Counted from the first letter of the stretch, positions 2,871 to 55,935 are shown. The stretch is 64,000 bases of DNA from Chlorokybus atmophyticus (GCA_009103225.1 RHPI01002910.1:442759-506758), one strand, 5' to 3'. Numbers and translations are program-made. Notes: generated by a model from the sequence alone, not told the origin.

Positions 2871-3019
2871 TTTGCAAGCACCGCGTGCACAATACTCAGC
2901 CTTTTGACGCGCTCTAAGTTGCGCTGTTTAGCTCACGACCAGAGCTTTCCAACAAGCTAAGCCACGCCTGCTAAGCTTACGTATCCATAAAGCTACACGG
3001 TTTCTCTCAACGCTCTACT

Positions 3020-6160: not shown

Positions 6161-6969
6161 GGCCTCTTGAGCTCCTTTCAAGGTGTCAATGGCTGCCAAG
6201 GTAACCTTGTCATAGGCTTGCCGTAAAGAGCAAAGGAAGGCGTCCAACTATAACAATATAGTGCTAAATGCGAACAGAGGGACTGCGGGGTAATTAGTGA
6301 CTAGCCAAGTCACTAGGCTTGCTCGCGCTGCATTGCCACCTTCTCGCATCCCCAACATCCGTCTCAGGCCGAGGCCTTCTTATCGATGTAGCATGGTTGC
6401 TTGTCGCAATAGGGCAATGCGAACTTGCTGTTCTCCAACTGAGCCTGCTCCATCCCGTTGTGTACACCCTTGTGGTGTAAGGTAGCTTCTCCCTGGATCT
6501 CGTTGATTATCAGGCAAGTCTTCCACCAAAGCGGGTAGCAACGGGGCGATCACCCCCTGGTTTGTTGGACCAGCGCCCTCGCTTGGTCAATGTCGGGCGC
6601 AACGGCGAGAGGTGTCGCGCTGGACAATGGGCCAGCGATTGTTGGTTGAGGAAGGGAAGCGCGAGCAGCAGCAAGGGCTTGCGCTCTTGCGTTAATGGCT
6701 GCAATTTGGTCCTGTCGCCAGGTGAGCACTTATTTTAGAGCAGTGTAGCGCTCGTGAAACCGAATGGTACCGAGGGGTCTCAGTGCTTCGCCGTCACCCA
6801 AAGGCATGTCGGCTACATCATCGATGTGCTGCTGCACATTGGGTTGCCGGTCTCAATACGTGTCTAGTGGACTTGGCTCGAAAGGCTCGTATCGGACTGC
6901 CAGTGGTGTCGACCAGTGGCGCGGTCTGCATGTTGTTATGCAGAGTTCAAAACAGCTGTAAGGCCAACT

Positions 6970-20744: not shown

Positions 20745-23326
20745 TGTGCCTTTACTGCAAACAGTCGCCAAGCCGGGCAGTGCAGCACCTCACAAGTAAG
20801 CACTCAAAACAAACGCCTCAAAGCGTCAGCGCTCCCCCTGTTATTGAGAACTGCCCTACGACCAACACCTTCACATGTGCCAAGTAACCTCCTGCACACC
20901 AACGTAGAGCAGTATCACACCTCGAGCATGCAGGAGGATGCCAAGAACGCCGCCGCCGCTGTCGCCAGGCCAATACTTACTACACGCTTGCAGGTATGCA
21001 CGCCTTGCTTTTACCCAAGTCTCATCACATGAGGACCATAGACCCCTAACGTTAGTAACCCGATGAGCGTGATTTGCCCTTGGATGTCAGGCCATTTCAA
21101 CATCACGTTATGTTCGTCAGGTCATGTTGTCACATGACACACCACAGTCATGTGTGTTATTCGTGATTATCCATTCGGGGGCGCGTGCTGACGCTGGCAT
21201 GCTCGTCCTTGGTGAGATGCCCGGTCGCGGTTGTCAGCGGCATCGCTGCAGCGCGCGACATCCGCTGCCATCTCAGCCGAGCGTCAGCAGAAGGGTACGG
21301 ATTCAAAGGGAATGCGGATATCGGTGTCGACGCAGCCAAGCTGTACGTGCTGTACGCCACCCAAAGCAGTGCAAGACGCTTAGGCCAATGCAACACGTGG
21401 CGTGTGGCACATGTGACATGCTGACTTCAATGTTGAGCTGCAACCGTTGCACAAATCTATGCATCAATGACACCATAGAGACACGTACATTACATCCCAC
21501 ACTCACTTTTGCAAACTGTTTTTCATTCTAACCTTTTGCTATGATGATACAAAGTCAATGGCAAATACATCTAATGCATTGATATTATAATAAGCAAGGC
21601 CTGTAATATCTTAAATATAAATTACAATCCAACGCATATGTTAATTGTTTTGGGGTTGTAGTGTACGTGTCTCTGTAGTGATATGCCTCGTTTTTTAAGG
21701 AGAACTTATGGCTCACCTACCTTCTGAAGTTTTGTGGTTGGATTAATAAAGATGACTTGAGCATAACGAAACATAACGTCTGAGACTTTATGTTACACTT
21801 CAGGCACAACGCTCAAAATAAAACAATATCACAGCACACTTTTCACATTACATTTTACCATCACCACCACCTCCGGTAGCCTACATGAGCACTACCACTA
21901 ATTCACATGATGCAAATGCAAATGCATGATCAATGATACGACTGAAAGAAGCATCAGGGGGGATATCCCATGTGTCCCTTGTATCGATTTGCAATATCCC
22001 TTATATCGAATTGCAGACAGCAATTCACAATGTCGAAATGGCTACACGACGAATCTAAGATAACCATAATTAAGCCGAATAAAAGACACGGTTTTTATAC
22101 ATGTTCTGCTTTGACACAATGTGTACACAACTGATTAACACTCCCAAAACCTATACATATGCACATGTTATGCAATTGCAGCTCGCGCGTATATATAACA
22201 GAGGCACTGATGTAGCATCACACTCGATTCAAATGAGAATTATACTTGATTTGCTAAGAGATTGCACTTCAGGCGGGTATGTTAACAATAGCAAATTGTT
22301 CACAACGTTGTAATAACAGAATATTCACAATAGATGCAAGGTTTGAAAAGGTAAGAAAGGTCATTATCTATGCGGTTTGTTTCACATTCAATTCATAATA
22401 CAATGTTCAACGAGCAAATTTCACCTACAACACCCTTTCACAAACATTATCGTTGATGTGTTTGAAAATGCTATTAGTCATCACATCAGTTAATATATGT
22501 GCATGGATTGCAATCGCAATGAGTGTGCTATGAACAAGTGGCATGTGCCACAAGGCAGTTGAGCATGCTTACGTATGCACATATACAATTCGCGCAACTA
22601 TATGTGATAAACACATCAATTTAAAACATGAGTATTCTCACACAATATTACTAACGAGGTGTTATGGGAATGATACAATAAGCATGTATGCTTGCATAAA
22701 AACCGGTCTACACAACATGTATTGCTTATATCACTGCATATAATTGCATGGAACTTTTTTATATGTATAATACGCCAAGTATACATGCCTAACTTTACAT
22801 TACACGTTCATCACATCAATATCTATTGAAGGTTAATCTAATAAATGTGTAATGATAATCATGTTGTTGTACCAATGCCTTATGCACATGTAATATAATG
22901 TAGACAAATGTATCCGATTATATATTGTAGTATATAAGATCAACCTCGAACCTTATAAGGCATTGGCAATGCCATACCAAATCCAGCTACAAATTGTGCA
23001 TATGCAATTGCGTATACTTGTAAACGCATATGGTGGAACAAAGGGGCTAACATACAAGATTGCAGTGATTAACCCAACAATCACATCTACATTAGCACGC
23101 CACAAGTAAGACCACTATAAGCTAGCTTAAACCATGGGGGCTAGACCTCTGTGCGTGAAGGCATGGCAGCAGGGCATGTATGGTACACAACAAATAGCAT
23201 ATGCAACTATGCACATGACAATTTGATAACCGTTTCATGCATAATGTTATGGGTTTGCACATAAAACAGCTATAAACATGGTAACATACTACAAGACTAT
23301 TCGTAAGTTTTTTCTTCTTCTAAGCT

Positions 23327-23394
23327 CCCCCCCCCCCCCCTTGCTGAGGTGACCGCTNCCCCCCCCCCCCTCTTTGCTGAGGTGACCGCTAATA
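23327..23394. other. Probable contig-overlap artefact (duplicated poly-C + ttgctgaggtgaccgct around a single n)
   Basis: Poly-C plus ttgctgaggtgaccgct occurs twice, separated by one n near 23359. Confidence 0.75.
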
Positions 23395-25239
23395 GAGTAA
23401 AAACTCGCCCGTACGTCAGTATGCCAATCGAAACCGCTCATCGTTTGTAGCTGTGGTCGAAGAGGGCTTTATTGCGAGGATAAGTAGGAAAACGAAGTGT
23501 ATATATGCCCCGGCTGCTTTTATGAGCAGGTATGCAACGATCATGTGCCTATTTAGGGCTATGCATGTAGGTTCCAGCTATAGCAACCACAGCTGGGTTG
23601 AGGCAAGTGTCAGGTGAGTACATGCGGGAAGCAGGATTCCTGCCCGCATGTAGGTCCCAAGGGCCGATTGGTTGTCCATCTTGCTATGCTGTACTGTGCT
23701 GCTGATGCTGGCTCTCTGTGTGCTTGCATTAGGCTATGCATTAGCTGTGTATCTGCCATTTGTTGACTGCGTGACTAACGGATACTAACGGCCATTCAAC
23801 AGCCAAGTTTGCTGCTCTAACAGCACCGTCGCCGGTGATGCCCCTTTAATCTTCTACCCCAACACCCACACCACCGGAGATAAGCCGTATAACATCGCCG
23901 GCAGCATGGCGCTGCAAGGGGTAGAAAGCTGATTGAGGTCCCATTAACTGATGGGGCCTCTTATATCAAGAGTATATCACATTGATGTCTATTAATATTG
24001 AATTCACAAGTAGATATCATTCCTACACATGGGGTTGCTGTTAGAGATCTCGCGTGAGCCTATCAAAGCTCAAGTATCAAACGATATGATACCACGCGAC
24101 GAGGTACCTAACTTAACATCTAACTATGGTGATCGCATATATGAAAAGCGATATCAAATAAACTTGATAGGCGGTTGTACACCTATTAAGACTTAGCAAA
24201 GCTATAATAAAGTATTAACAGCTTTAATAAGCGAGGAACCGTAGAAATGAGGTATAAATAAAGATGTACGGATTTGATATACTTATTCATACAAATCATG
24301 CTATTTACGTAACAATAATACCCCTATTATTATTGCTCCCATTACAGCTGCAATCCTTTTGGGTGTCGTGCTAGATACAACGCTAGCGGCTCAATGAGGT
24401 GGCGGCGGGGCCAAATCACGTTCAGCGTCGTCGTTATCGAAGTCTTGCGTGTAGATGCTGCGTGGGTGCTAGACACGGCTTGACACCCACGCCTCTGCTG
24501 CGCAGGTGGTTCCCACTTTGCCTGCTCAACTAACCGCCCTGCCTACTGCTCATTGCATGTTGTCCGCATGTTGGCCGTCGTGTAGACTCTTCTAGCTTAT
24601 GCTGTGCGCTGGTCTGGCCCCCCCCCCCAAACTTGTTTACTGCAATTGCTGTTGTGCGTGCTGGCATTGTGACTGCATAATATCATTGCATCTAATTGCT
24701 TTATGTAGAGGGTAGCTAGACTGTGTACGTAGCAAACTTTACATGGTGACTGACTAAGGATCTAGGGACTGACGGGTGCCTGAGTCTGCCTGAGCCTGCC
24801 TGCCGCTGCCTAAAAAATTACTTTTTGACTATTGGGTTTGCCGTTGGCTTATGTGGACTGACGCAAACGGCCGCGGGCCGAAAGTGGTTGTCAGTGGCAC
24901 TGACCGGCCGAGAGTTGTCAACCAGTGACCCTTTGGTCGATGCGCACAGACAGCCGTCAGCCGGTAGTCACGGACGACTGACAGCAATAGCCGGCAATTT
25001 CCTTGCCGTTACACTGCTGTTAATATGTGACCCTTACTGTTTGACAAAAGTTGGCAATTCTTGCCGTAAGCCAACACTAACATGCCATGCAGCTTGTACA
25101 AACCTTGGACTGATTGTTTGGTCTTGCAGCTATAAGCCCACAATATATCTAACGTATCGGCAGTGATGAGAGTATGTCCACTTGCAAGTGAGCAGCCGAC
25201 TTGCGCATGAAACTACCTACAACATTGAGTCTAGCTGTC

Positions 25240-26286
25240 GCACTCATTCGCAGCTTGTCAACCCGTGGTGCCTGCCTCAGAACTCCTCCTCAACCCCCTC
25301 CTCTTGTTCCTCCTCCAACAAGTCTTTTGCTTCAATATCGGAGTCATCTTCATCTGCTGCCTCGCTCGCTGATAATACAGCAGCTACTTCGTCCTTTAGC
25401 TCATGTCAGCACCTCGCCGTGCACGCGAATGCGCTTGATGGTCGCATTGAGAGTGACCACATGCATTTGGTAATGCTGTAAGAGTGGCGTGCTGCAAGAG
25501 GACTAGCCCATCAGCATACACATGCTTACCTTGTCTTCCGCTCTGTTGCACTCCGCCTGGCAGAAAGTCAGCCTGCCGCGCTACTCTTGGTTCACTCCGA
25601 CCAACATGGCAATCCGCAAGCATACTGCTTTTTTGCCGCTGAAAACATTAAACTAGGTCATGAATCACCTATTCGTAGTACTCTACAGCTTCTCTTTTGC
25701 GACTTGTAAGCTCCCGCAAGTAGAAATACGCTGTGAATTGGCGAGATTGGTCATGCTGTTCATGTGCATGACACTGGAGGGTGTGCATGAGGGTGTGCAT
25801 GTGGTATTGACAGTGTAGGTCGTGTGCAACATACTTGAGGCTATGCATGTGCAAGATAAAAGAATTTTAGCATTGACAGTGCATCGTAACCCACCTTGGT
25901 TATGCCAGTCTTGTTTGGTCCCTTCAATCACGCCGCAGTGGTCGCAGCTGCTGGTAGGTCGGATGTTCTTAGAGGCAGTATTGTGGTGTGCCTTTGCCCA
26001 CTCGGAGGGGGAGCCCTGTAAGATATCGTCAAAGTCACTGTCGTCATTGGCTGTGCCCTTGGTAGGCATGGTGGGGTTTGACACCAAGGACACCCCACCG
26101 TCACCTTGCCCGCCCTTTGCAAACATGGGCTACATCCCGGACCTCGACCACAATGCCCACTACGCCCCTGGCATCGCCACCGATCCACCAAACACCACAT
26201 ACCCTCGGCATCACCGCCATGCGAGGGCATAGCTTGGCGGCGCCATTAATGGTGTTTTCATGCGCAGGGACTGGCATTGCAAGCAC
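25240..26286 (-). pseudogene. Unknown spliced gene divergent from the transposase (CxxC motif, acidic C-terminus)
   Basis: Fragments SEWAKAHHNTASKNIRPTSSCDHCGVIEG, YFYLRELTSRKREAVEYY, VVTLNATIKRIRVHGEV and the acidic end EAADEDDSDIEAKDLLEEEQEEGVEEEF*; gtaagc/cag intron near 25530-25495; frameshifts. Confidence 0.4.
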
Positions 26287-26320
26287 TTGTCAATGGTACG
26301 AACTGCCATTGCCACTGTAT

Positions 26321-26454
26321 AAAGGTACCATTTCAATGGTACCTTTTGGCAAAGGCATCTTCATACCATTGAAACAGTTCAATTAGGATATTCATGCAGA
26401 CTCACCTTACCCTGGACGTGCAATGGCTCAATCGTACCATAATAATGGTACGAT
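26321..26454. promoter_or_regulatory. Two GTACCAT-N4-ATGGTAC palindromes between the divergent gene and the transposase
   Basis: aaaggtaccat-ttca-atggtaccttt (26321-26346, 11-bp arms) and atcgtaccat-aata-atggtacgat (26431-26454, 10-bp arms); an additional ATGGTAC at 26293. Confidence 0.6.
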
Positions 26455-26529
26455 GGAGCCGTCACGCCAGCGAATGGCAGCCAAGTTTCCCGCCTCTGGC
26501 ATGCAAGGGTAGCGGCGGCGGCGGCGGCT

Positions 26530-29500
26530 GTGTGTGTTGCTGGATATGATGATGCAAGTTACGTTGACGTTGGCGACACCTGTGTCAACGTCAGTAGTGA
26601 GCTATGGGAGTCTTTTGTTCGTATTGCCATAGGCGCTTCGCCATACGCAGCTCGGTTTACATGCACATTGTTGGCAGCAGGGTGTGCAAGCAAATCAAGA
26701 TGTATGTCGGCCAGCGCCCATTACAGTACGATGCGGGTCATGTTGAACCAGGGAGTTCGATCTAGGATGCGCACATGCTTAATGCTAAAGGACCCTCCAA
26801 GAGACACACGCACAGCAGCGACAGGAGGAGGAGGAAGTGAACGAGGGCTTTCGATGTGTGCGTGTGCCTAAGAAACCTGTGGCACGCCAACATGGAAGTG
26901 GAGGCGTCCCTTCGCACGCGTTGGAATCCAGGTGGTATGGCTCGGAGCATGCTCTTGCAGTGGCATTCGTGCAGTGCAACAATGGCCAAGGCCTGTCGGC
27001 CTCCGACATGGGGCAGATCATCAAGTGCATCCGAAATGCACACTTCATAACGGCAGAGCTCCAGTGGGAGACCAGTGTGCATGTGGCCAGCTACCTTTTG
27101 ACCACAATTGCTTTCTCTCAGTCTAAGGTGTGTTCACGGTGTGCGGTGCATGTGCTTCAACCGTCAGAGCCATGTCACATATGCACATGCGAGTGTGCTG
27201 CCGTATCAGAACTACGACGACTGACCTGCGCAAGCCTGGAGACCCTGAGGACCAGGACATCAGAGCGCTGTCACATATATGCCAACCAAGGTCAGTGAAA
27301 TGCAGTATCCAATGCACTATCTATGCAGTATCTAATCTGAAGCTAGCACGCCTGTTAATGCTCTTGGTCGGAGCAAGTATGGCTCGCGCGGTTGTATGGC
27401 AATCCACATGCCGCTAATGGCTTCAATCTCCAGTACAGTGGTGACGAGCACAGCTTTGGCCATCCTTCCACGGGCGATTTGTGGAAGGATGTGGAAGGAT
27501 GTTGCACGCGTCGGAATCCAGGTGGTATGGCTCGGAGCATGCTCTTGCGGTGGCATTTGTGCAGTGCAACAACGGCAAAGGCCTGTCGGCCTCCGACATG
27601 GGGCGGATCATCAAATGCATCCAAAATGCACACTTCCTGACGGAAGAGCTCCAGTGGGAGACCGGTGTGCATGTGGCCAGCTACCTTTGAACCACAATTG
27701 CTTTCTCTCAGTCTGAGGTGTGTTCACGGTGTGCGGTGCATGTGCTTCAACCATCAGAGCCATGTCACATATGCACATGCGAGTGTGCTGCCGTATCAAA
27801 ACTACGTGACGGCTAACCTGCGCAAGCCTGGAGACCCTGAGGATCAGGACATCAGCGTCACATATATGCCGGCCAAGGTCTGTCAAATGCAGTACATAAT
27901 GCAGTATCGATGCAGTATCTATTCTGAGGCCAGCATAGTAAGTAATGCTCTTAATCGGAGCAGGTATGGCTCGCGCGGTTGTATGGCAATCCACATGCCG
28001 CCAATGGCTTCAATATTCAGTACAGTGGTGACGAGCACAGCTTTGGCCATCCTTCCACGGGCGATTGGTGGAAGGATGTGGAGGTGGATTTGAGGAGAGA
28101 GGTGGGGGAAGCGTCCTACTTGGCGCCTGCCATTCTGTACAGTGACAAGACCACGCTGGACAACGCGGGCAAGCGCTCTGGCTACCCTTTGATGGCATCG
28201 CTTGCCAACCACAATTGGGACATGTAGGCTAGCAACATAGGGGTTATTATGATAGCGCTTCTGCCGGTGGTTCACGCAGTGGCTGGGCATCCCACGTGGG
28301 CGCAGGGCAAAGGATCATTCTCAATTCGGACGTGAGATTTTTCATGACGCTTTGAATGTAGTGTTAGGGGATGTGAAGCGGGCGAGCTGGGATGGTCTGC
28401 AGCTCATCGACCCGAATGGCATCGAGCGTCGTGTGTTTCGCGCGCTTGCCAACTACATCAGCGACTTGCAGGTAGTGGGCATGCATGGTTGTAACCGGAT
28501 GCAGCCTGCCGGCAAATAGTGCATGGAGGATGTTGTCAGTGGAGCATCTGAGTTTGTCGTGTTGTAGGAGACTGCCACACACGCACGCACTGTGTCGGGC
28601 AACCAGACACACGACATCCTTGCAATATTTGTCTCGTCACCAAATTAGATCTGTTGGAGATGGATGAGAACCGAGGCTTTCTACGCAGTTGCAATACGAC
28701 AGCTGCGGGCGGACTTGCATAGCGGTGTTAGGAATGCACACCAAAAAAAGCCAAGGCTTTCAACGAGCAGCACTCCATGCAGGTCGAGGAGGTAATGGTT
28801 ACATTACCGACATTTGTGAAGATAAATGGCTTTCCGTGTAACCAGGCAATGTCATTTGGCAACAGAATGCACTGTGGGGTTGGTAACAATTGCGGGTGCT
28901 GGGAGCTGACTGCTACTGCTATTGTCTCGTCTTGCCCCTGACGCAATGCATGTGCTGGGAGGCATCATTGACCACCTGCTTGCTGCTGTGTACGACCCTG
29001 CGAAAGAACGCATGCGTTCATCCACGAGACAGATTCTGCAAGCCAGGCACGTCTTTGGTGTTGCTTTTGTGTTGGACACAAAAGCCAACGACACGTGCTC
29101 ACAAACAGATGTGCACAGGCTGAATGCATCAAAGGCGACTTCACGGGTTTCGCACTTCAAGGCACCCACAAGCACAGTAGATTTTTTCCTGTCCGATCAC
29201 TTCTTTCAGGTGGTGGAGAAAGTGGCGGTGCTGCAGCTGCCGGTCCTTGCAGCCGGTTTGCTGCTCGACAATGAGGGCAACGATTTCTTCACCATTGCTG
29301 CCGCATCGCTTGCCCAGTGGAACAAAATTTTGCTCGAGACGCATGAACACACAACAGAGACCCTGACCACAGCCGACATTGAGGTGGTTGCCTTCAAATC
29401 TGCAATGTTGAATGCGCTACTGTCGTGCTATTCGGCACAGCAGTCAAGTTGGAAGATCGGAAAGATGCATCAGCTCACTCATTTTGGGCCGGCAATTGTC

Positions 29501-30323
29501 AAAAATGGACACTTAAATTGGTTCAATGCCAACCGCATGGAGCAGACGCACGCCCAAAATATTAAACAGTGGGCGCGTGGTGGCAATAATTGGGACTAAC
29601 AGGCGCGTACCCTGAAGGCATTGAGCTGTGCGGAATATGTGAGAGAGGATGGCATGGTCGTGGATCCCGAGATGCGCTCGGTCATGACGCAGGCGCGGCA
29701 GCAGTGCTGTAATGTCATGGAAAAGACGGACAAGTTGCTATGGATGGATGTGTTGACAAGGAGGGAGTCCAGCCCGTACTGAAGCGGTTCTGCGCGTAGC
29801 CGCCAAGTCGCCCTGAGGACTCCATTTGCCGACAAGCTGCCTGCCACCCTAGCCAGCTGGTTGAGAAGGGAACAACTGGAGTTGGCCGACGGGTGGTGTG
29901 CTATTTACGTGGTGAACGGAGGCGCAGCGGTGTACATGACATCAGGAATCAACATGGCGCGTGCAATTGGGATTCATGAAGCGGCCTTGGTTCTCTACAC
30001 TTGAGTTGGAAGGTGATGAGGACGGTGTGAACGTGACGTGGTAGGCTCAAGCACTCCTTTTTTTGCGCGTCGTGGTGTGGGGTGGTAGCGGCGAGCGCGT
30101 GTGGAAGGAGGTCGTGTTTGGCTGGTACACAAAGCTGGATGTGACAAGTGATACAAAGTGCATCGCTCTGGAATGGGAAAAGCGTCGAGGGGGTCCACAT
30201 CTCGATGTCGTGACTCTGGAGCAAGTAAATGGCATTGTCCAGCTGCTCCCCATGTATAACAAGAACAGCGCCCGTGTACAAGAGGCCAAGTATTGGGTGA
30301 ACGCTCACTGCACTGCCACGTGA
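26530..30323 (+). pseudogene. Plavaka-family transposase pseudogene
   Basis: HPSTGDWWKDVE...LAPAILYSDKTTLDNAGKRSGYPLMASLAN (about 28045-28215); IFHDALNVVLGDVKRASWDG...RRVFRALANYISDL; HPCNICLV; PDAMHVLGGIIDHLL; KMHQLTHFGPAIVKNGHLNWFNANRMEQTH...IKQW; C-terminal DVVTLEQVNGIVQLLP...YWVN. These follow the Plavaka motif order; premature stops, frameshifts and at least one intron (about 28472-28568). Confidence 0.85.
26915..28082 (+). repeat. 590-bp tandem duplication inside the transposase 5-prime region
   Basis: Copy 1 starts cacgcgttggaatcc at 26915 and copy 2 starts cacgcgtcggaatcc at 27505; about 15 differences in the first 225 nt aligned by eye; junction rich in tggaaggatg. Confidence 0.95.
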
Positions 30324-30526
30324 CACATGTACTTGTCTCACTACTCTGAGTTTATAGCATATCAGTCAGTTAGGCATTGCTAATCGTATGCTAAGACTTT
30401 TGCATGTGAACAGGTACAATACCGGGCAGCTGTCACTGCACAACTGTCACCACAATCAAATGTCGAATGCAACATTTAACAATCAGTTAGATGTGTGCCA
30501 TTAAGCATCAATATAGTGCATCACAC

Positions 30527-32227
30527 TCAAGTCTCATACTTCCATGACACAGGAGGGTAGTCACAACGCATATCCATTGTTTCAATCATGAGACGCTCTA
30601 TGCACTCCGCCATTGCGGGAGGAACTGCATTTGTTATGGTAACGGCCGAGGTCATCCATTGCACTCCCAGCGCTGGTTGCCATGCAGCAATGCCGCCCCT
30701 GGTGCTTGGAAGGCCATAGACTTGGTACATTAGCTGTGGCGCATTGAATGTCACGATTGTCTTCTTCGCGCTAGCGGACAGGTGCGGCGAGCAGTCCAAC
30801 CGCCTTGCCCGCGTGTGAGTAGCGTGCTGGTGGGGTAGCTACCACTGGCTGCGTCTCAAACAGACGGTATCAGAAGGTTGATTGGCCAAACATTGTGCCA
30901 CAAAGGGACAGATTGGGTTTGAATGAGGAAGCTGCTCCTGGCACACTCTCAATCACAAACTTGACCTGGCTTGAATGCAGCAGATGTCGGACGAGCAGTA
31001 TCATATCCTGGTGTCTTCAGGATGTGCCATGTGCCACCCGTTGAGGTACCGGGATAGCACCTGAACAGGCCTGGCATGGTGGACTGGCCCATATGAGCTC
31101 GTACTCGCTCAGCTCTCCTGCACTCAGGGTGCATACATCGCAGTGTATGAAGGGCAGTGGGTACTCATAGGAGGGGCTTATGTCCATCTCGGTCACGTCA
31201 AAGCCTGCGTGATATAAACCGACACTGGCACCACCATCGCCGCAGTATAGGTCGAATGCCCTTGGTCTACGTGTGCGTCGTATGTGGTTCAGGCTAGCCG
31301 TGGTGCTGGCTAGGGACCAACAATGATGCCGTTCGGGCTTACTTTGCGATTGACATTCTCCCCTTCGGCGCGCAGAACATGGCGTGCCCCGTCAACCGAT
31401 GTGTACGCGAATACGCTATGCCCTTTGAAGTTGATAGTTTGTGGTCGATCACCTTCATCGAATACTATACGGTGCTGCCTTGTAAAGCCATTTTTTATTG
31501 CACCATACATATGTGATGCGTCCTCAATCCCGCACGCCAAGAAGCTATTCTAACCTGACGCTTGCTTAAATGCTTCTACAACGCCCGCATACCATTCCCC
31601 ATCCAGCGGCTAATGCACCATGACACACCGATCAGCTGCTCGCATCCCAACTTAACTGCGTTCCGCAGCCGATGCAGTGCGCTGTCTAGCGGTCGATGGT
31701 CTGCCTCCTTTGCAGCGGCCAGGGGGTGGAACTGCCCACGCCCACACCGTGAAAGACTGCTCTGAATGCGACAACCGCTTCAACATGCATGAAATAAGCA
31801 TACGCCCAACGTAACATGCAGTGCTACGTCACTGTCCACTCTGCCGAATTACCTCCACAGCATCCACCACCTGTCCACTAAGCACATGTCCCAATGTTGT
31901 CCATATGAAGAAGCGCATGGGTTCCCCTCGCCGCTCAAAGCACGAGCGCAAGCACGATTCGCAAACGCACTGCACGCAATGGAAAAACTCGGGTTCCTTG
32001 CATAGCACCTTGCCAAAGCGGCAGCCAAACACGTCGACATATTGTGTGGTGTGATGCCAGCAAGCAGTATGAAAACCGTGGCACACTGTCTGCACTTGCT
32101 GGCATTCGGTCAAGTGTGCTCGCATTTGCTGCCTATGGCCATTGGCACATACGTACGCATTACATTGTGGGCACACCAAGCATGGTCTCTTAAGTGAGGG
32201 GGATTCAACTGCTGCCGCCAACATCAT
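30527..32227 (-). pseudogene. Zn-finger + Tudor + phage-type C5 DNA cytosine methyltransferase, pseudogenised
   Basis: Motif I AFDLYCGDGG (31253-31230); EYPLPFIHCD; motif IV IWASPPCQ (SPPCQ 31085-31071); motif VI-like VIESVPGA; LCGTMFG...*YRLFE; C-terminal AWQPALGVQWMT...NAVPPAMAECI. Upstream: Tudor VMVH*PLDGEWYAGVVEAF (31624-31568)...HRIVFDEGD, and Cys-rich N-terminus CPQC-x14-HLTEC. Stops and frameshifts throughout. Confidence 0.85.
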
Positions 32228-32344
32228 GCAAAATATGAATCGGCACGGCTGCCCACAAACTGAGCGAGATATCAGGGTATGGGCATCAATTCAAGGTTGC
32301 CAGCTTACGAACCTCAAATGAGTCACACTTTAAGAAGCACGACT

Positions 32345-32418
32345 GTACCATGGACGGTATTACAGTACCATGCATGGTACTCCATTAACATCAATGGTAC
32401 TCCATGCATGAATGGTAC
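32345..32418. promoter_or_regulatory. Cluster of five ATGGTAC/GTACCAT motifs upstream of the methyltransferase gene
   Basis: GTACCAT at 32345 and 32365; ATGGTAC at 32374, 32394 and 32412; lies in the gap between the OTU-RING stop and the Zn-finger-Tudor-MTase start. Confidence 0.6.
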
Positions 32419-32755
32419 TACATTATAAGGGTACTCGCATACCACCACGATCGTAGAATAATACTGTCATTTCATGGAACCCAGAGCGTTGTCCGAGTTT
32501 GCTGTCAACCACGCTCTGAACCTGCAAGGTATGCAAGCCATGCGCTGACTCATGCGCCGGATAGTCATCATACACATGTACAGCCAATGCTTCTGACAAC
32601 AGAAGATCTTGGGTGCACCATGCACCATGCTGCAATCATACAAGTACCTACATGGTTCACAGGAAGCAAACACAAAACTACAGTACATGCATAATTGTCA
32701 TCGAGGCGGGGGCCAAATTACTGCCGACACGTTGGCGTCTTGAAGCAGGCGTGGC

Positions 32756-35700
32756 GACTAAAACGGGTGAGGTTGCTTGCAGAAGGGACACGCTTGTAGC
32801 TTCTTTTATTTATTTGCCACATGCTTCTGCTGATATATGATGTAGACATGGCACATCGTATGCTTGCAATAGGGCGTCTCCCCATCCGCTGGGGGGTTGG
32901 GCTCTTCAATGCGACAATTCACCACGCATGGTGCACGCGGGTTTGCAAGCTACCTCTGCCACCAAACTCTGTCATTGCGTTGCAGGTGCAGCAACTCCCA
33001 TCTGAATGGCGCAGCATAACGCTCCACTGCCTGCTCAAACACCTGACGCCCATCTGCCGCCATACACCACCTGCTGATTTTGGTGGTCTCGTCCAGCATG
33101 CGTTCATCCAGGCCCTCGACATGGCTGTCGTCACTCGTGTACTTCCCCGCATTGTCATTTTCTTTGAGCTTCCACAGAATCAGCTCGACGTGCCGTATGA
33201 CATACAGCCAGTGCCAGCCAATTGGCATGCTTTGCAAAGCATGCCAAGTACAGCTCGAATGGTTTTACTTGCCACCCAGTATGTTTGCTCTGGTAGTGGC
33301 ACACATCTCGACCCGCATCAGTCGACATCGACAGGTACATCTGCTGCAGGAGGTCGAATTTTTGCTCCGCGGATAGCTCTTGCACATTGCCGGGTTGCTG
33401 CGGCAGCAACAACACCACCATATCAAGGACGGCGAGGGGCAACAATATACTACGGATGGCCATATCGTGTATGGGTTCCAAACACGGCTAATCCCCAGAG
33501 GTCTGTTTAGACCGCACTCTCCGCGTTTGCTCCCACTTATTGCATACTTTCGTCACCCACCTTGAGGCATGCCGCATGCGGTGATGCAGCGCGTCTTTGG
33601 CGTATTGTAGGGCGATCAACTCCTTTGCACTACGAGTCAGCCCCTCAAGGTGTCTGCGCGTCGGCACTCTTACTCAAAGGAGGTAAGGCGTTATCTCCTT
33701 GCTCCACAGCCTTGCGCTTGTTGGTTGCCTTCCGCTTCTCCACGACCTCATGTTGCTTCATGAGGTCAAGCATAAAGCCTTTGTCTTTCAGCGCAGCTTT
33801 CAAGACACCTCGATCAATCTCTTTACCAACAAGACAGGCTGGGATCAATGTGGCAAGCTTGGAGGGGGAGGGCGAGCTACCGATGCTTCTTGATGGAGAT
33901 GCCTCCAGATGGTCAGAATGCGGTGGCAAGTGAGTCTCCGTAGCAAGAAGGGAGGGTGCTGAATTGTTATTGCGAGCATGTGGCTGTAATTGAGGGGAGG
34001 CAGGATGTGCAGAACAGTGGGCTACTTCTTGCATAGCACACGAAGGTGAGGCCTGAGGCATTAGCACAGCACCTGGGGTCGCAGCCGGTGGTAGCGGGGA
34101 AATGGCAACGCCATTCCGCCACTCTCCGATCAGGTCTGTTACCTCCAGTGGCACTTCATGCATAGGCCACGACCATTGTTCGGTGCTTGCAGGCTCGAGG
34201 AGCCAAAGTGTGCTTCTGGCTCATCAGGAGCAGTGTTGCCCACCACCAGGATTGAGTTGGGGGCTTCTTTATTTCCAACCCAAACTGCGCTGCCGGGTCG
34301 TGGCACCCACTCCCCATGCTCGCGCTGAACGGTCACGCAGCCAATCAATAAGCCCAGCTTGTTGGCAAACATGGTCATCTGCAGGTGCTCCACGTACACA
34401 TCTTTTCACCGCATGATTTGTCGCACCTTGGCCATGGCTATGTCAATGTTGCAATTGACACCAGTCAACATGGTCGCAGGCAGTTTGTCGTATACTGCGC
34501 CATCTCCCCCGTGGCACCAATGGCTATGCAGAAGTCTATGATTCTACTTACCATGCCTGCATCGACAGCCTTGGCGGTGTTTTTACGGAGAGTGTTCCCC
34601 CTGCCGTCGTCGTCCATGGTGTCCAGCATGGCCCAAAATGTTCGAGCTGGGGCATTTGTGATCATCCATGACACTTTGCGCTATGGATGGCCTGGCGCGA
34701 AACACACAATGGTAGAAGCAATTACCATCCGCTGGCGCATTAAAGTGGTCCATGAGCCGAGCTGGCCACCTAACATGACTGATGGCCGTATGTGGGTTGC
34801 GGCCAGCTTCTTTGATGACACGCTGGCAAGTGGTGACCCCTGGTGCATGCGCATACAGCTCAAATGGTGTGTTCATCTGCCGACGGCAAGAGTCACAGTG
34901 ACCCAAAAAAGAAACTGAGCTTTGGGCAGACTGCCGCCTTCAACTTGCAGCGGGTGGGGTAAGGTAGGTGCAGAAGCCACATCGATTGTTGCATTGTGCT
35001 GTGGTCTCGCCGGTTGCGGCTACAAGGATAGTTGCCCCGCAATCATCGGGGCTGCTCGTGGAGGAAACAGCAGTGCATGAAGGACTGGTGCCGGAAGGTG
35101 GATGCGCTCTGGCTGCGAGGGGAGTAGGCGGCAGGTGAGACCACTTGTGCATGCAGCAAGGGGGGCTGTATATAGGATTCAGGATAAAATGGCTCACAAT
35201 GTTGCAAAGAACGAATATAAGCTTATGCAGTGCCTGACGCATTCACCAAGGCACAAGCATAAAAGACAGCGACTTTCCTCAATGGCCCGTGGGCTGCATG
35301 GAGCAGAGGAAGCTATGGGGGCTGACAAGGTGGTATTGGGTGCACTCTCCCCGCCACCCTCAATCGCAGACTCGTCACGGAGCTCGTGAGCCACAGGATG
35401 CGTCAATGCCCCAATAGACATGTTGGGCTTCAACAGGCCAACATGCATGTTAAACTGATGCCGCATTGCCGCCGCGCCCATCAGCAAGTGGGATTGAAGG
35501 ACCAGTTGATGGGCTTGAATCCAGGCTTGCATGCAGCTCCAATAGGACCTAATGAACTGTGGTGCTGTCAACCAATCACAATTGGGTAAGCTGCATGCTT
35601 GCGACACTGTCATTGTCAACCGCGTCACATCGTCATCAGTTGGTTGCTTCGAACAGTCACCTGCGGCATTGCTGGTTGATGCACAAATGATTGCATGGAT
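32756..35700 (-). pseudogene. Large apparently intronless gene: Cys-rich region + OTU-like cysteine protease + linker + C-terminal RING finger, pseudogenised
   Basis: OTU Cys box FNAPADGNCFYHC (DGNC 34729-34718), then LRKNTA, DVYVEHLQMTMFA and His box AHF (His 34210-34208); RING-like CVVNC-x15-CKHTMCHVY-x16-CPFC (32928-32779); upstream CNNRCGFC, HCDSC and CLLCLCLGEC motifs; several stops and frameshifts; 5-prime end approximate. Confidence 0.7.
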
Positions 35701-36714
35701 TGCGTCATTGCTGGTTGATGCACTACTGATTGAGTGCCGGACAAATGGCCACGCGCTCCTGTGCTTAAACCCAGCCTACTTCGTTCCGCGCGCGCGCGAA
35801 ACTTCGCTCGCTTACGCACATTTTAGCATGCAAAGGTAGGCATGCATGGAGGTGCATGCAGTCAACATGTACAGCGAGATTGGCAACAACATACCGCCGC
35901 CCAGCTCTGTCTATCTGCTCTGGCTTCCGCAATGTTGGCTTAACTGTGGGGTGGGTATAGTTGAATAGTGGAGGCCTGCAGCCACGCTACATGTATCACA
36001 TGGACTGCGCAAAAAAAAAATTGCTCTTGCAAGGTAATGCAACTGTTGAGCGTACCTCTGCATTCCTTTGTGCTTGTTCTCACAGTCGCAATTGGTCCCG
36101 CATGGTTCTAACAAAGGGCTCCAACAACTGCAGCTCCTGATCCACTCCTTGTTGCAGAAAGCGAGTCACCAAGCAGCTCTCTGTGTGAAGATGGTCGTTA
36201 ATAACTTGCCTGATGGTTGTCCAATGTTGGTAATGCATGTTGAACAGCCCTATTGCTGACGCCTGCCATGATCCATGATGTGGCGCCCGGTATTAGCTGG
36301 CTTCGCTGCTTGAACTCTTACGACCACAACTTCTTGCAAGATGTGCCACGCCGCCACCACCGCCGCCGCCCCCTCCTACTCCTGATCCTCCGCCTCCTAG
36401 TCGAACCCAGGTCCACTATGCCTGACATTCAAGCCGTTATTAACTTGATGCCCCTGCGTGCCATCATCCGGCCATCAATGAAGATGTTTGGGTGAGTGCA
36501 CGCTAACTCCCATTAGGGCTGGTCGAGCAATGCCTCTGTCGTAGTATAAATGTTGCGCCTAAGCCATTATCACCCTTGGTTGTACGAAGCATGGATGGTA
36601 GGAATGCATAAGTTGTACCATCAACCATAGGAGAGCAGGACGCACTACCAGTGTGACTCTAGTGCGGGACTAGACGTTCAAAACCGCCTCATTTTCGTTT
36701 TCGCGCCTCGTACA

Positions 36715-38640
36715 TTGAGGCGGGCCACCTGGTGGGCGTCAGCATTTAATGCAGCAGCGCCACCATCCGCTAAGCAGGCGGCACCCGACTATCAGTTAGA
36801 GAGATGCCTCGAGGTCCATCTGCAGGTGCACCTTGTCGTGGAAGTGGGCGCCTCAAGTTCACATTGCCCCCAGTGTTTAACCAGGCAACCGTCGCCAACC
36901 AGCAGCAGCCACTCTTGGCCAACCAATCGCAGCAAGACCCCGCGCCAACGCCCAGCGCATCACAACAACTCCACCTGACACCGTAGTCAGAGGGGCAAGC
37001 TAGAATGCATGCGTTCTTGATGCACTGTGCACGTTGCTTCTTGCTCAACTTAAAACTTTGATGCTTGCTTCTTTCATAACTGGTATAGTAACTCACTGCA
37101 TGCGTTCTGCATATACTGTGCACGTTGTTCTTCTTGCTGAATTGTGAGGTTGCATCTTTCATGGCTGGCAGCATGACTCACGTGGTTGTGCTTGCCGAGG
37201 GTCGATTGGAACCCCCAACCCAAACGCATTTGGCCGTGACGTAGCAACCTCAGCCGTCATCAACCCTTCCCCAAGCAACTGGAAGATTGGCAACGAGGTA
37301 AGCACTGTGTGACACTGTGACACCGTGACACCGTATGTAACGGATTGTTCTGTGGACAGCATTTGCGAGATGCCGTCGTTAAAAGCATAAACGGCCACTG
37401 GGTAGAGAGCCACGTTTATCCCAAGGAGGACACTATTTCTAACGCCATGTGTCGGGTGCTGTGAATGCTTCATGACTTCACTGCACCGTGACACAGACCA
37501 ACCTGCCCGTGACAGGTAGTTGGCTTCCACCATGACGATGAGGCTGATGCGGCCAAGTTCTAAAAAGTGTACTGGACGCCCAAGGAGTGTCGCTTCCACT
37601 GGAGTGTCGCCTTGAAGAACGCTACGGTCCGGTCTGAGAACGTCACCAAGATCAAGCATGTCACTGAGAAGGAGTACAAGTGGACATTGTTTGACAGCAA
37701 CAAGCGCAAGTGAGTTGGGTCCCTCACCACCATGTCTGCTATGCAACATTGCCTTCTTACTCAGCCTCCACACACACGTACGCATCTCGCCTATTGTAAC
37801 CGATTCAATCAGGCACGTCGACGCCCTAATGGACCCCGAGCCCCAAAAAGCGCAGATGCGCAACGCGCTCCAAAGTCACAGGCAATACTTCTAGCATGTG
37901 CAGGCTCAACTTAAACTATTTATATCGTGACCAATGCCTTGTTGGTATGACTCTCGCAGACAAGTTATGGCGGGAATTTGAGGTGACCGACAATGCAGAC
38001 CCAGAGCGAAGGGGATACATCCATGAATGGGGCAATCCCATAATCTGGCAGATGATCGTGCAATGCTGTCGCACGCCGTCACCACACCTGATCGCCGGCA
38101 GCTGGCAGTCAACCACCCCGCATACCTGTTGCTTACAATGAGCACACTGAACTCAATCACTAGTAATTCAGAAATGCTGTAGCCCCAAATTACAAGCTTG
38201 CAGCCGCGCTGCAATGAATAGTGGCTTTCAATGCCACTAAAACATGCTTGTAAACCACACAGGTGGAGCGCATCCTTAAGGGCAAGGATGGAGACCCTCT
38301 CATAGCTGCCAGCATCGACACACACGTAGAGTACCTCAGCAAAATTAACACCATGATCATGTTAATAAAGCGGGAGATGAGGCAACGGTACGCAGCCCTC
38401 CAGCCATTCACCCTTGTGAAACGCCGCACTGTGTCAAGTACCTGAAAGATCCCAATCGGCGCCGGCCGCAAGAGACGTCTGCTCAAGACCCTCTCGCTAA
38501 GGCAGAAGCGGCATTTGATTGGCTGGCGCAACCGTTTGAGGAGGAGGAAGAGCAAGCTCCGGCGTCTCCTCTACAGGTTCCAGCGCGTGGTGCTTTATTT
38601 CATAATGACGAGCAAGGCGATTATGGAGAGGAGCTGTAGC
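36715..38640 (+). pseudogene. Unknown spliced gene within the accessory block
   Basis: Exons with gtaagc/gtgagt donors encode HLRDAVVKSINGHWVESHVYPKED...KVYWTPKECRFHWSVALKN...WTLFDSNKR, DKLWREFEV...IHEWGNPIIWQM and an acidic end AFDWLAQPFEEEEEQ...YGEEL*; in-frame TGA/TAA stops. Confidence 0.5.
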
Positions 38641-39054
38641 GCAGCTGGTAGTCCGTTTAATTGGTACTGTACACAGCTCCAAGTCTCTTGTGACTTAGTG
38701 TTGTGCATCTTAAACCAGCTCAATCAATCGTCATTATGCTCATGCATGTCAAAACTTGCATCCCTATGGTATACAACAGAACTGCAGGCATTCAAATCAC
38801 ATAATCGAACTACAAGCCTTGGCAAGTGGCTTAGAGACACTGTAAACATTTTAGTACCTGTACGCAGCACACAGGCACATAACGATGCTGGCGATCAGTG
38901 ACAGTCGCGTGTAGTCATGCTTTGCAAATACATATAACGACAGTTGCATCAGTCACCTTCAGTTGCTTGAAAAATGCCTTATCTTGTCGACAACTTCCTA
39001 ATTGATGCTTGTGAATTAGGCTCAGTCGCCTGCGCTGGACTGGTGTGTAATCTG

Positions 39055-39308
39055 CAGGTGCCTGTTACATAGGCTGAGTCACCTGTTAAGGCCTAAGTAA
39101 GACTGTTGTATAATTTGCAAATGCCTGCTAATTGGGTATAGTCACCTGTTAAGGCCTGATGTGCAACTTACACATGCCCCTTAATTGGTTATAGTCATCT
39201 GTTAAGGCTTGATAAGTAACTGACAGGTGCCTGTTGATTAGGCATGGTCATCTATTAAGGCCTGGTAAATATAAATAACTAACAGGTGCCTGTTAATTAG
39301 GCATAGTC
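39055..39308. repeat. Tandem array of about 5 units (53-63 bp) with agtcacctgttaaggcct cores
   Basis: Cores start at 39077, 39140, 39193, 39246 and a truncated one at 39305; units contain the near-palindrome tgcctgttaattaggca. Confidence 0.85.
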
Positions 39309-39309
39309 C

Positions 39310-41210
39310 AACCATACCACCGCAGTTGCGACGCGCTTGGATGGATCATATAGTGACTTGGAAATACTCGGAGACTTTGGGCACGGTAGTCATCATAATC
39401 AACCGCACAAATCTCGTCATGAGAACCACCGTGCAAGCACGTGGAGTGTTGCAAGAACATGCTTGTGAATGTGCTGAGCCCCCTTATGCACCTTTCATGC
39501 ATGCAGAAACTACCACATGTGCTCACTTGTGACTATTTAATTACGGGCTCAGACTCTTTGCGGGAGTTCTTTGCTTGTGGAACCAAATGTTGGGCACCAG
39601 CCATTGTTGCAGTGCAGGAGACACTGGTGGCCATTAACAAAGGCATTTGCAACTTTGTGGAAGCATTTGAGGCCTGTCGAAACCACACTGGGGTGCTGGC
39701 ACCGTGGACAACCATGCTGATGGCACAAGTCCGCGAGCATGCAGTTGCACTGCATGAACAAGCTGTGCAACACCCGTTGCCCTATGACAGACACTGACAG
39801 GAATTTGTTGAAGGCCATACACCAATGCATGGTGGTCACACAAGTTTATATATGTGCTGGTACCTTGATGTTGCTGTGCAAGTCCTTTTACTTACAATGC
39901 TTGCGTGCAGAGCTGCACACGCCTACGTATAATTTGCCACGACAATGTGCAGGACATACTGAATCAGCGCATGGTTTTGCCTCAAATAAACCAAGAGTGC
40001 CAGTGTCCTTGCCGCATTTGTACACAACTGTCAATTTTGCACAAGAGTTCAACTTGGGCGAAGTTCGCCCAAGCCTCGTATTCATTGCTGCATATGCCAC
40101 CACTTAAGCAGATGCCTCCATCTGTCTCACAGGGTCATATAAGGGCATGAAAGATTTCGTTCATGTGGTGTGGAGTGAAGCACTGGGAAATCAGCTTTAC
40201 TCGGCTGCACCTCAACATGACAAGAACACTACAGCAGAGGCGTGAGCACTTGTTGTTGCAGTTATTTGACTTTAACACATTGTACACTAACTTGGCACAT
40301 TCTGACTTGTTGGTGCGCATATAATGCATGCGGTCATTAATTAACAGAGTGTTTGATTGTGTGCTACGTCCACACCGCAAGACGCACATGCACATCAACA
40401 TATAGGACGGTGATGTCACACATACTTTGGTGAGGGGTACAATAGTGACGAGAGAGGGCATCACAAGAGTGTTCACGGTAGCTGACTTGCATGCGTTGCT
40501 AGAGTACGTGGTTGCTAACCTGTATGTCCAGATTGTCGATGAGTTGCACCGCCAAGTCAATGGTATCCCATGGACAATAATGCGGGGGTATACATTGCCA
40601 ATATGACCTTCCAACATACGAGTTGGACTTTGTACACAGGCTAGTTGCAGCAGGCCAAAGACCTCTCGCTTTGAGGTTTGCATGCAGTGTGTTGCGTTAT
40701 GTTGACAACTTGTTGGAGGTTTGCATGAGATGACTGCTTGCATGTATCCGGACCCAGTCGCACCGTGTGCACCACGGTGGCATTTACCCCAGGCACATGC
40801 TACCACTATTTAAAACTGCTTGTGGCATTATCATTCCTTTCTGGAATTTACTTGTATCTCAATCGCGAGATGTAGAGTTGTGCACCCGTGTGTATAACAA
40901 GCTCAACTCTACACCATTCCGGTTTATTTTAAGACGCAGGGCGCCATACTTAGCCAATAACTCCAACAAGCTAAGTTTGGTCGTGTCACAATTTTTGCGG
41001 ATTGCATGCATATGCACTTTGCGTGAGCATTTCGCGAGTAAAATGGTGCAATTGCAAGACATGCAATCATATGGTTATGCCATGGATCCTTTGCTGGCTG
41101 AGCTCCGTGACAAGATGTGTAGGATACAGGGAGAGCAGGATCGCGTGTCCTACCAACGCTTCTATATGTTGGTAGCCAGGAGGCGTACAGCATCAACGAA
41201 TTGATAAGTG
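39310..41210 (+). mobile_element. Penelope-like element reverse transcriptase, 5-prime truncated and decayed
   Basis: PLE-type motifs in order: HACEC...HVLTCDYLITGSDSLREFFACGTK; LPHLY...FIAA; FDFNTLYTNLAH (40265-40291); LLEYVVANLYV...QVNGIP (40553-40570); LRYVDNLL (YVDN 40698-40709); IYP...TRVYNK...F...PYLANN...VVSQFLRIACIC...YGY. No GIY-YIG endonuclease seen. Confidence 0.8.
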
Positions 41211-42950
41211 TAGGTAAGTGCGGTACCCCACATTTGGGGAGTAGCTTGCTGCCAGCATACCCTGTGCAGTGCGTCCTTGCTTGCCATGCGCTGCTTGTTG
41301 ATAAACTAAATTAGATTGCATGCACGCGTTATATAGATCGCTAACTGAGTAGTTTGCTATTGCATGAGCTATTTTTTTGGCGTAATTACGCAATAGAGCC
41401 GTTGCTGCAAAAGCAGCTCCCGTAGCCACTTACCAGCGCCAGAAAGAAGCCATACCCAAGCATGTGCAGGAGCGGCGCAGCTGATGAAGGCGCCTACGCC
41501 GTCTGCCACTACAGCACAGCACAGCGCAGCAGCAACATCACCGCCCCACCCCGCCCTGCCCAACCTTGCTGATGTGCTGCGACCTGTGCATAGGGTATGC
41601 ATCGTAATCATCCCACAAACATGCTCATGTGCCAGTAGTGAACACACAAGAATATACCACCAGCACAAACACAATTATTACACCCGGGGCCTTCACACCT
41701 ATTCTACATCACATTGAGTGCCTTATGTGCAATGCAATGCAAGTTGAGCAGCAGGAGGCAGCATAGGCAATCCACGCGTTAACCAACCTGTGTAGCACAG
41801 ACAGTAGGGGAAGGTGAGAAGCTATGAGGTCGCGCGGGAAGGAAGAAACGAACGGCCACACGAGTGCAGTGATGTGCTGCGTGCTCTGCCGCCCACGCTA
41901 TATGCCGCCCGCCCCACGCTCCGAGCCTCATCGCGTTCTAACGGCTGTTGTGGTTAGGGTTGATGTTGCGCGCTGAGCCAATTGCCTCACGGCAGTCGTG
42001 AGGCAGTCGTCAACGTAAATCACGAGCACAGAGTACAGCACGCGACACATCAACGCAGAACAAATGACAACCTCAATAACACTGCATGTCTTGCTGCTGC
42101 CGCAGTCTACGACTACCTCTGCTAACCAGCGGCTGTGGGCAACAGGTTGATTGGTTGCTGTCGTTGCTTGCTGCGCCTCCTGCTCCGCCTCAACTCCTCC
42201 ACACTCATGCACTTAGCTAGGGCACGTAGTTGCAAGCTCCAGGTTGCCCATGCCTTTGCCGTAAGTTGTGCTTCCTCCTCTGCTTGATTGGCTGTGCTTG
42301 TTGCGTGCGTTACATTGCATTGGACCTACTGGACATCCTATACAATGAGCATGCAACAACGCTTACACCAATTCCGACTCGTTGGATGCCTCATTTCATA
42401 TTTCAACTCCGACATTATATGTGTGCTACTCTTTGCAATGCACGAGTCAAACAATTGCATGACGCAATCTGATGCATAATATATAAATTTGAAAGAGTGC
42501 AGGCACATGTGCAGACAAGTGAGAAAGACTCAGTTCAAAGGCGTCAACCATGTGCAACAACAACCGCTAAAATTGAGCCTCAAACCGTCAACTTCATCAA
42601 TCATCAAGCACTCTACAGATGATTTACGCTATCTTGTAATCCTTCAAGCATCGCAATGCACACTGTGCTCGTGCAACATGCCTCAATGTGTAACACCACG
42701 ACCAAGGTTTTGCAACAAAGTACTCATTACTCCAATCGTGTTTCAATGAAGCTAACCCAACGCAGCACGACCTTGTTGCACAATCCATGCAACTCATGAT
42801 GACATGCCTAACGACATGCCACCAGCCATGACAAGGCCAGTCAATTACACAGCGCACCCTCGCTGTGCATGGCAATGCGACAGCTCATGTATCAGTGTGT
42901 AGAACTTGTATGTCAGGTAGCCACTAAGATTACATACACAGCTTCGCAAT

Positions 42951-55900: not shown

Positions 55901-55935
55901 GGCATCAGACATCAGAGAAAGCACATCATCTGTAG
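52907..55935 (+). CDS. TAPT1: TAPT1 / POD1 / EMP65 (DUF747) ER membrane protein
   Basis: RVYNTILHVPRRVEQ; LSINVAINSHSNALLTVLISNNFVEIKGNVFKKMSRENLHKVACMDAVERFHL; AEVLVDIVKHAFLANFNDI; LNFVPLAPACV. Start at 52907 (first exon ends at gtaagt) is tentative. Confidence 0.88.

Follow-up and report, generated by a model that had tools for sequence, protein, structure and literature searches.

A probable decayed copy of a giant Plavaka-type transposon carrying a phage-type C5 methyltransferase gene and other predicted cargo in Chlorokybus atmophyticus

In a 64,000-nt stretch of the Chlorokybus atmophyticus genome (GCA_009103225.1 RHPI01002910.1:442759-506758; hereafter the window, with coordinates counted from its first letter), a decayed gene for a Plavaka transposase lies near the decayed genes for a small C5 cytosine methyltransferase, a predicted OTU-RING protein and two proteins of no recognizable family. 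The question raised by this locus is whether these genes moved as one element, as had been proposed in an initial annotation made from the sequence alone, and what such a cargo might do for the transposon that carried it. We find a real, multi-copy, cargo-bearing element of the Plavaka type, of which the window very probably holds a decayed, right-truncated copy of giant size, with a transposase predicted to mobilise the whole unit. Four accessory genes are likely to be carried, including the phage-type C5 methyltransferase, for which fusion with a Tudor domain is predicted, and the predicted OTU-RING gene.

A repeated unit around a Plavaka transposase

Two stretches identify the transposase by their similarity to Pfam PF18759, whose cut-off is 26.3 bits: 27940-28329 scores 45.5 bits (E 7.6e-12) and 28301-28480 scores 29.7 bits (E 4.9e-7). 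In translation, the motif order of the CMCT clade is present, namely D (28138-52, YSDKT), D (28454-71, YISDLQ), C2C (28615-32), H3H (29468-82) and E (29534-51), as assigned by eye across introns and frameshifts. This clade is defined by C2C and H3-4H motifs placed after the second D and before the E (PMC12730594). The transposase pieces had no relative among longer proteins (3970 candidates), viral contigs or metagenome contigs (165 pattern matches, none confirmed).

Copies of the element were assessed by placing contigs of sequencing runs on the window at 80% identity, and element-bearing contigs were found in three runs (X1, X2 and X3) from two samples and two studies; no RNA run was among those listed. 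Contig depth over the window forms a plateau: all 22 bins in 24492-39099 (of 30) read 124-270 in X1, 29-167 in X2 and 2.5-61 in X3, and the six outermost bins are near zero, at 0-1.6, 0-4.0 and 0-0.3, respectively. The repeat unit delimited in this way is at least 15.5 kb in size and begins at or before 23824, about 1.4 kb further left than the start at 25240 that had been annotated. Long contigs of the family have depths of approximately 120-140 (X1), 85-110 (X2) and 6-9 (X3). For calibration, contigs with no differences from the unique flank of the window have a depth of 2.0-3.7 in the same runs, and the exons of a host DUF3700 gene at 19.8-20.5 kb have a depth of 0. Since these conserved host exons are uncovered, the deep contigs do not come from an abundant related genome; taken together with the shallow flank-identical contigs, this means that the runs cover the organism thinly and that the simplest account of the deep contigs is as further copies of the repeat. 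By depth ratio there are probably some 25-40 copies, a figure that is likely a lower bound and indicative, since summed contig depth is not copy number.

That the genes form one repeated unit follows from the flat depth and from contigs that bridge the transposase with the methyltransferase and the methyltransferase gene with the RING. For example, one X3 contig (contig 19, spanning 29369-31842) holds the catalytic H3H and E, the end of the transposase, the methyltransferase and the Tudor, and one X2 contig (contig 13, spanning 31876-33184, depth 87) holds the Cys-rich region of the methyltransferase gene, a cluster of ATGGTAC motifs and the RING.

The deep contigs differ from the window copy by about 5-12%. 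In X1, the window has T/A where the family has C/G at 501 sites, against 197 sites in the reverse sense. A tandem duplication of 590 nt inside the window transposase is missing from an X3 contig of another copy, where 27033 is joined to 27624. In a frame test, the length change seen in the family was applied with placeholders at the indel sites, six of which, in the 12 indel rows listed, change the frame; at four of the six, in the transposase tail, the methyltransferase, the OTU gene and one of the genes of no recognizable family, the family's length change gave the longest open frame. Based on the T/A polarity, the missing duplication and the restored frames, the window copy can be regarded as decayed, and as belonging to a family in which one subfamily is younger and more intact. 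It is highly probable that the transposase mobilises the whole unit and that this near-identical subfamily made most of the copies. Other kinds of copies were also seen at low depth, including an X1 copy with a joint from 37050 to 38751, in which the whole gene beside the array is gone and 27 letters ending in a telomere-like repeat stand instead, and further copies with internal deletions.

The accessory genes, their common motif and the ends of the unit

The methyltransferase domain lies on the minus strand, tail-to-tail with the plus-strand transposase, and both halves of this arrangement in the initial annotation were borne out. Of 990 candidates, 36 are relatives of it (44-45% identity at a best E of 6.6e-27); it also matches the PHROG family phrog_363 (E 6.6e-17), and one viral contig encodes a match at 51% identity. 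Motifs I (DLYCGDGG), IV (SPPCQ), VI (ESV for ENV), a partial VIII with a stop, and X (AVPP) can be read, and 12 invariant columns are common to the window domain and 33 aligned relatives. The C-terminal motif is in another frame, and tblastn independently backs the join, with one segment in frame -3 and one in frame -1. A model made from the alignment reached a predicted local distance difference test score (pLDDT) of 80.8, with DNMT3, DNMT1, DNMT2 and M.HaeIII as its top Foldseek matches. The family assignment and the DNMT fold are solid. Elsewhere in the family, one relative (P0001) is joined to a primase-like protein of 1025 aa at its C-terminus, and a viral contig (L001, 3253-6907) has a small C5 enzyme near a D12 adenine methylase.

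Because the methyltransferase domain has no methionine of its own, it is likely fused to upstream exons; a clean in-frame splice joining the two was not found in this decayed copy. Upstream lies a likely Tudor, two pieces of which match contiguous residues 16-38 and 39-51 of PDB 7DE9 at an E of 0.37, which is not significant; one expected tryptophan position is a stop in this copy. The entry is the Tudor of Arabidopsis PDS5C, which binds histone H3 monomethylated at lysine 4, according to a preprint. Further upstream is a Cys/His-rich region, probably zinc-binding, for which there was no Pfam or PHROG match and no usable Atlas match. Of the zinc-finger-Tudor-C5 gene that had been annotated, then, the C5 domain stands, the Tudor is weakly suggested by its structural match and the zinc finger is a reading by eye.

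A similar picture holds for the OTU-RING gene, in which a likely OTU cysteine-protease domain lies within a decayed multi-exon gene on the minus strand (~32758-36300). The 13 best of 24 PDB matches of this region (E 0.03-0.31) carry the ADGNC motif; two of these are named OTU or ubiquitin thioesterase, and the rest are presumably OTU domains of viral L proteins. Atlas clusters of OTU proteins ranked second and third for the region, at 0.76. There was no Pfam match, no match among 1.84 billion representative proteins and none in viral contigs; the second half of the region had no PDB match, and a single-sequence fold gave a pLDDT of 32. The likely RING finger at the 3' end matches Pfam PF24921 at an E of 0.006 (17 bits, where the cut-off is 50) and two PDB entries only, TRIM30 (E 0.055) and BRCA1 (E 8.6). 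The motifs and these matches point weakly to the OTU-RING gene of the initial annotation.

The two remaining genes, a decayed CxxC gene with an acidic C-terminus and a spliced gene beside the array, had no Pfam or PHROG family match. The CxxC gene was read as annotated, except for its place: it is found to the left of the transposase and runs divergently from it, instead of following the OTU-RING gene. The clusters of ATGGTAC palindromes said to lie upstream of both the transposase and the methyltransferase gene are there, with five exact copies each (26293-26451 and 32345-32418). Over the window, the motif occurs 16 times against 7.8 expected, a count reached in none of 100 shuffles, and its density of 5 per 200 nt compares with 2 or fewer in all 60 of 60 order-3 Markov simulations. 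One X3 contig holds extra letters with the motif near 36516-36543. The presence of the same boxes at both genes suggests co-regulation.

The array at the right of the unit is as described initially, except that its terminal position is not borne out, in that other copies run on in array sequence past 39299; the window copy is therefore cut within the array. Folding of the array units showed no real covariation (1 of 10 pairs), and Rfam had no match in 21000-43000. An 8-mer core of the right array unit (39057, 39226 and 39285) recurs in the same orientation at 24775-24782 and 25267-25274. To the right of 39299 the window switches to the decayed remnant of a reverse transcriptase gene (39310-41300, plus strand), which adjoins the broken array and had no Pfam match in three frames of 40480-40802; by eye, its motifs look Penelope-like (RQVNGIP at ~40570 and RYVD at ~40700). 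Since this remnant abuts the broken array, a deletion or insertion probably removed the right end of the element. On the left, the letters of the family differ from the window beyond 23824, so both ends are apparently lost or diverged in this copy. No credible inverted match was found between 23001-25300 and 38601-40000, where only chance-level 8- to 10-mers occur, and a motif taken from the loose left end of the family was not found in the window at up to 3 mismatches, nor in metagenome or viral contigs. Just left of the element is a short low-depth repeat (23494-23650) with a hairpin near 23620-23650, and several contigs depart at 23650.

A Pfam scan of 220 of the 260 stop-to-stop open reading frames of at least 85 aa in the window found copia remnants and genes of the DUF3700 aluminium-induced-protein, leishmanolysin-EGF, DUF747 and LCIB families in the flanks, a gene set suggestive of an alga, probably green. 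Several decayed pieces of copia-type and other long terminal repeat (LTR) retrotransposons lie on both strands at 1680-8400 (gag, zinc knuckle, protease and GAG-pre-integrase by Pfam). An assembly gap of 357 N at 17344-17700 and a single N at 23358 are both outside the element. All features are collected in Table 1.

Table 1. Features of the repeat unit and its flanks in the window
Feature	Position	Strand	Basis and remarks
Repeat unit, minimum extent	23824-39308		High-depth contigs to 39299; patchy 23824-24725, continuous from 24726; both true ends missing or diverged here
Left non-coding region, short GACTGAC-type repeats	23824-25270		High-depth matches 23824-23872, 23949-23979, 24222-24346 and from 24726; more diverged from main subfamily
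Decayed CxxC gene, acidic C-terminus	25277-26230	-	Translation; CDHC 25946-25935; divergent from transposase; start not fixed
ATGGTAC/GTACCAT cluster 1	26291-26454		Between CxxC gene and transposase; inverted pairs, 12-bp and 10-bp arms
Plavaka (CMCT-clade) DDE transposase pseudogene with introns	26500-30323	+	Pfam PF18759 and motifs; start approximate
590-nt tandem duplication in transposase	26914-28093	+	Copies 94% identical
Small phage-type C5 cytosine methyltransferase domain	30527-31280	-	Motifs, relatives, fold; interrupted here by two stops and one frameshift
Likely Tudor (plant PDS5C/MSH6 type)	31430-31640	-	Split by 26-codon stop-containing insert, probably an intron
Cys/His-rich region, probably zinc-binding	31832-32250	-	5' end of methyltransferase gene; translation, by eye
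ATGGTAC/GTACCAT cluster 2	32345-32434		Upstream of methyltransferase gene; 18-nt perfect palindrome
Likely RING finger	32760-32930	-	3' end of OTU gene; 7 of 8 C3HC4-type ligand positions by eye; one Cys reads Tyr
Likely OTU cysteine-protease domain	34205-34760	-	ADGNC 34732-34718; His in EAHF 34216-34205
Weak third ATGGTAC site	36590-36621		Between OTU-RING gene and spliced gene; one exact and one 1-mismatch copy
Spliced gene beside array, ~6 exons by eye	37160-38639	+	Translation
Tandem array, 53-63-nt units (~53 typical)	38990-39308		Short inverted repeats, 7-bp arms 39280-39295; broken within unit at 39308
DUF3700 host gene	19817-20517	-	Pfam
Leishmanolysin with EGF repeats	48001-50585	-	Pfam
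DUF747 host gene	54741-55932	+	Pfam
LCIB/C carbonic anhydrase	63691-63999	-	Pfam

What the cargo may do

Methylation of cytosine to 5-methylcytosine (5mC) is the usual weapon of hosts against transposons. The initial annotation had the element writing 5mC, reading methylated chromatin and editing ubiquitin. At the level of predicted domains, this is strong for the methyltransferase and weak for the Tudor, OTU and RING. It is probable that intact copies encode an active 5mC writer. The variable region between motifs VIII and IX is short in this methyltransferase family, so the zinc-binding and Tudor modules would be the parts that supply chromatin targeting.

The mechanism that we prefer, tentatively and by analogy, makes the cargo a module for self-regulation. 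In this view a protein that the element encodes would recognise the ATGGTAC boxes or the array, while the methyltransferase and the OTU/RING protein would control how the element's own chromatin is methylated and ubiquitinated, or would make the element's proteins more stable, and the outcome would be copies kept transposition-competent against host silencing, comparable to VANDAL elements with VANC and to the accessory genes of red algal Plavaka. It is more doubtful that the full chain applies, in which a minimal phage C5 methyltransferase would have been turned into a chromatin-guided writer by fusion to a Tudor for methylated histone lysine and paired with an OTU-RING protein under ATGGTAC boxes, the whole being a self-marking module and a route for orphan DNMTs into algal genomes.

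Several observations weigh against the self-regulating transposon, at the level of the cargo and of the unit itself. The observed/expected ratio of CpG is the same inside the element (0.73) as outside it (0.72), GTAC shows no depletion (58 sites, with 54 expected), and only 3 of the 23 C-to-T differences listed are in CG context (12 CA, 5 CC and 3 CT); there is thus no sequence trace of CpG self-methylation. The OTU, RING and Tudor assignments all fall below every significance threshold. No contig among those listed spans the whole unit, and the junctions 25924-26598, 33664-34597 and 36241-36516 are unbridged among the same contigs; runs X4 (left stretch) and X5 gave no matching contigs, which leaves the element in two samples and two studies only, and summed contig depth does not equal copy number. 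Two of the six frame-changing indels (25402 and 35244) did not yield the longest frame, and four restored frames out of six would occur by chance with a probability of about 0.10 at 1/3 each, with only the indel rows listed being counted. Neither a terminal inverted repeat (TIR), a target-site duplication (TSD) nor terminal TGT..ACA or CATCA..TGATG was found, and the ends and empty sites were never seen. As for the 12 of 23 differences in CA context, a bias resembling repeat-induced point mutation was considered and set aside, as CA is the commonest context of C here and the rows are the best 40.

Nearly as likely as the self-regulation module is that the cargo is passive. In this case there would also be one giant element, and its accessory genes would have been captured and carried without acting on it, or would act genome-wide and not in cis. 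This accounts less readily for the restored frames in three cargo genes at the tested indels of the high-depth subfamily, or for a methyltransferase that keeps its motif I to X core outside the phage-type context, behind a likely eukaryotic reader and introns; the common promoter boxes, suggestive of co-regulation, also speak against it.

It is improbable that the span is a set of nested or adjacent independent repeats, such as a plain Plavaka with separate elements (for example, one with the methyltransferase and OTU genes) that became fixed and were then amplified, or a product of segmental or tandem amplification. The unseen ends, the three unbridged junctions and the patchy matching of the left 0.9 kb would fit such a history, and giant algal transposons often contain nested insertions that have become fixed (PMC12477816). 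However, three runs show a single depth level throughout the five genes, the transposase-methyltransferase pair has ATGGTAC boxes of the same kind on either side, and no internal TIR, LTR, second transposase or reverse transcriptase was found in the span. The claim that the genes moved as one element has good support from depth, bridging contigs and restored frames, short of proof, with no ends, TIRs or TSDs seen.

A decayed endogenous DNA virus or Polinton-like segment holding a Plavaka insertion is very improbable: large viruses commonly encode OTU and RING domains and the methyltransferase belongs to a phage family with a match on a viral contig, but the scanned reading frames, which do not reach the missing right part of the element, included no viral core family (no capsid, polB or packaging ATPase, as noted initially), the flanks consist of host genes and of copia and Penelope-like remnants, the genes have GT-AG introns, the transposase and OTU pieces are without matches in viral contigs, and contigs at 80-100% identity with many deletion variants are as in dispersed decaying copies.

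Relation to known elements

The closest likeness is to the giant Plavaka of the red alga Bostrychia moritziana, 17.4-19.1 kb in size, in which inverted-repeat arrays accompany genes for adenine methylase-SET and ParB-oxygenase proteins (bioRxiv 10.1101/2025.02.11.637652). The two have in common the transposase, the size, several accessory genes including a DNA methyltransferase, arrays beside an accessory gene, mostly degenerate copies and a proposed self-modification. The cargoes differ, in that the Bostrychia element has an N6-adenine methylase with SET, ParB with a 2-oxoglutarate oxygenase and an unknown gene, whereas the window element has a C5 methyltransferase to which a Tudor likely belongs, along with a likely OTU-RING gene, and no SET, ParB or oxygenase match. 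Giant Plavaka with DNA- and histone-methyltransferase cargo are thus known in red algae, which makes the novelty smaller than first thought. Among fungal PlavakaA and PlavakaB, which have a CMCT-clade transposase as here, PlavakaB can carry TET/JBP, and so also a cytosine-modifying enzyme (Kojima 2025, PMC12730594). The TET of PlavakaB oxidises 5mC and is an eraser, whereas the cargo of the window element is a predicted writer; the termini and TSDs that define Plavaka were unseen here. Plavaka is also reported from chlorophytes and streptophytes, giant repeats flanked by Plavaka are described in Amoebidium, and a Sola element of Ectocarpus carries a ParB-methylase gene.

Mobile carriers of C5 methyltransferases are found in the retrotransposons of Symbiodinium and Klebsormidium (PMC5890265) and in the viral Mariner-1_OLpv (PMC3627910). 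For the retrotransposon enzymes, de novo CG methylation has been shown and self-methylation proposed (PMC5890265). Those carriers hold retroelement enzymes that are Dnmt3-derived or borne by long interspersed nuclear elements, or are a virus-borne Mariner with an endonuclease partner, in contrast to the window element, a nuclear cut-and-paste transposon by its predicted transposase, with a minimal phage-type enzyme and a likely reader. The small phage and bacterial enzymes of PHROG 363 (P0003-P0037) resemble the window domain in core identity (44-45%) and in the short variable region. However, 35 of the 36 relatives of this type are 183-293 aa long (the other is 324 aa) and an N-terminal extension is absent from all 33 that were aligned, whereas the window domain follows Tudor-like and Cys-rich exons.

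Deubiquitinase-type cargo is known from the OTU- and VTD-bearing Helitrons and Helentrons, where a shield for transposition proteins has been proposed; the activity of transposon OTU domains is described there as not yet tested (PMC9741609). Those are rolling-circle elements with the OTU inside the RepHel open reading frame, whereas the window OTU is in a separate gene with a C-terminal RING-like motif. Finally, VANDAL elements of Arabidopsis, in which the accessory protein VANC acts on short motifs in the element's non-coding DNA, offer an analogy for the ATGGTAC boxes (PMC5735166). VANDAL is Mutator-like and VANC causes demethylation, and the window element is likened to it by analogy, with no homology claimed.

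In a search that did not reach most of the subscription literature, no publication turned up that describes a C5 methyltransferase or OTU-RING gene in a Plavaka or CACTA element. The cargo set is apparently undescribed, as initially suggested, although methyltransferase-bearing giant Plavaka have been published. If the proposed reading is true, a DNA transposon family that retains a 5mC writer, apparently coupled to a chromatin reader, would add a new enzyme source and a new element class to the cases from red algae (adenine methylase and SET), fungi (TET) and retrotransposons (DNMT). The locus also offers a small enzyme and a candidate cis-motif, and it may point to a path from phage methyltransferases to lineage-specific eukaryotic DNMTs.

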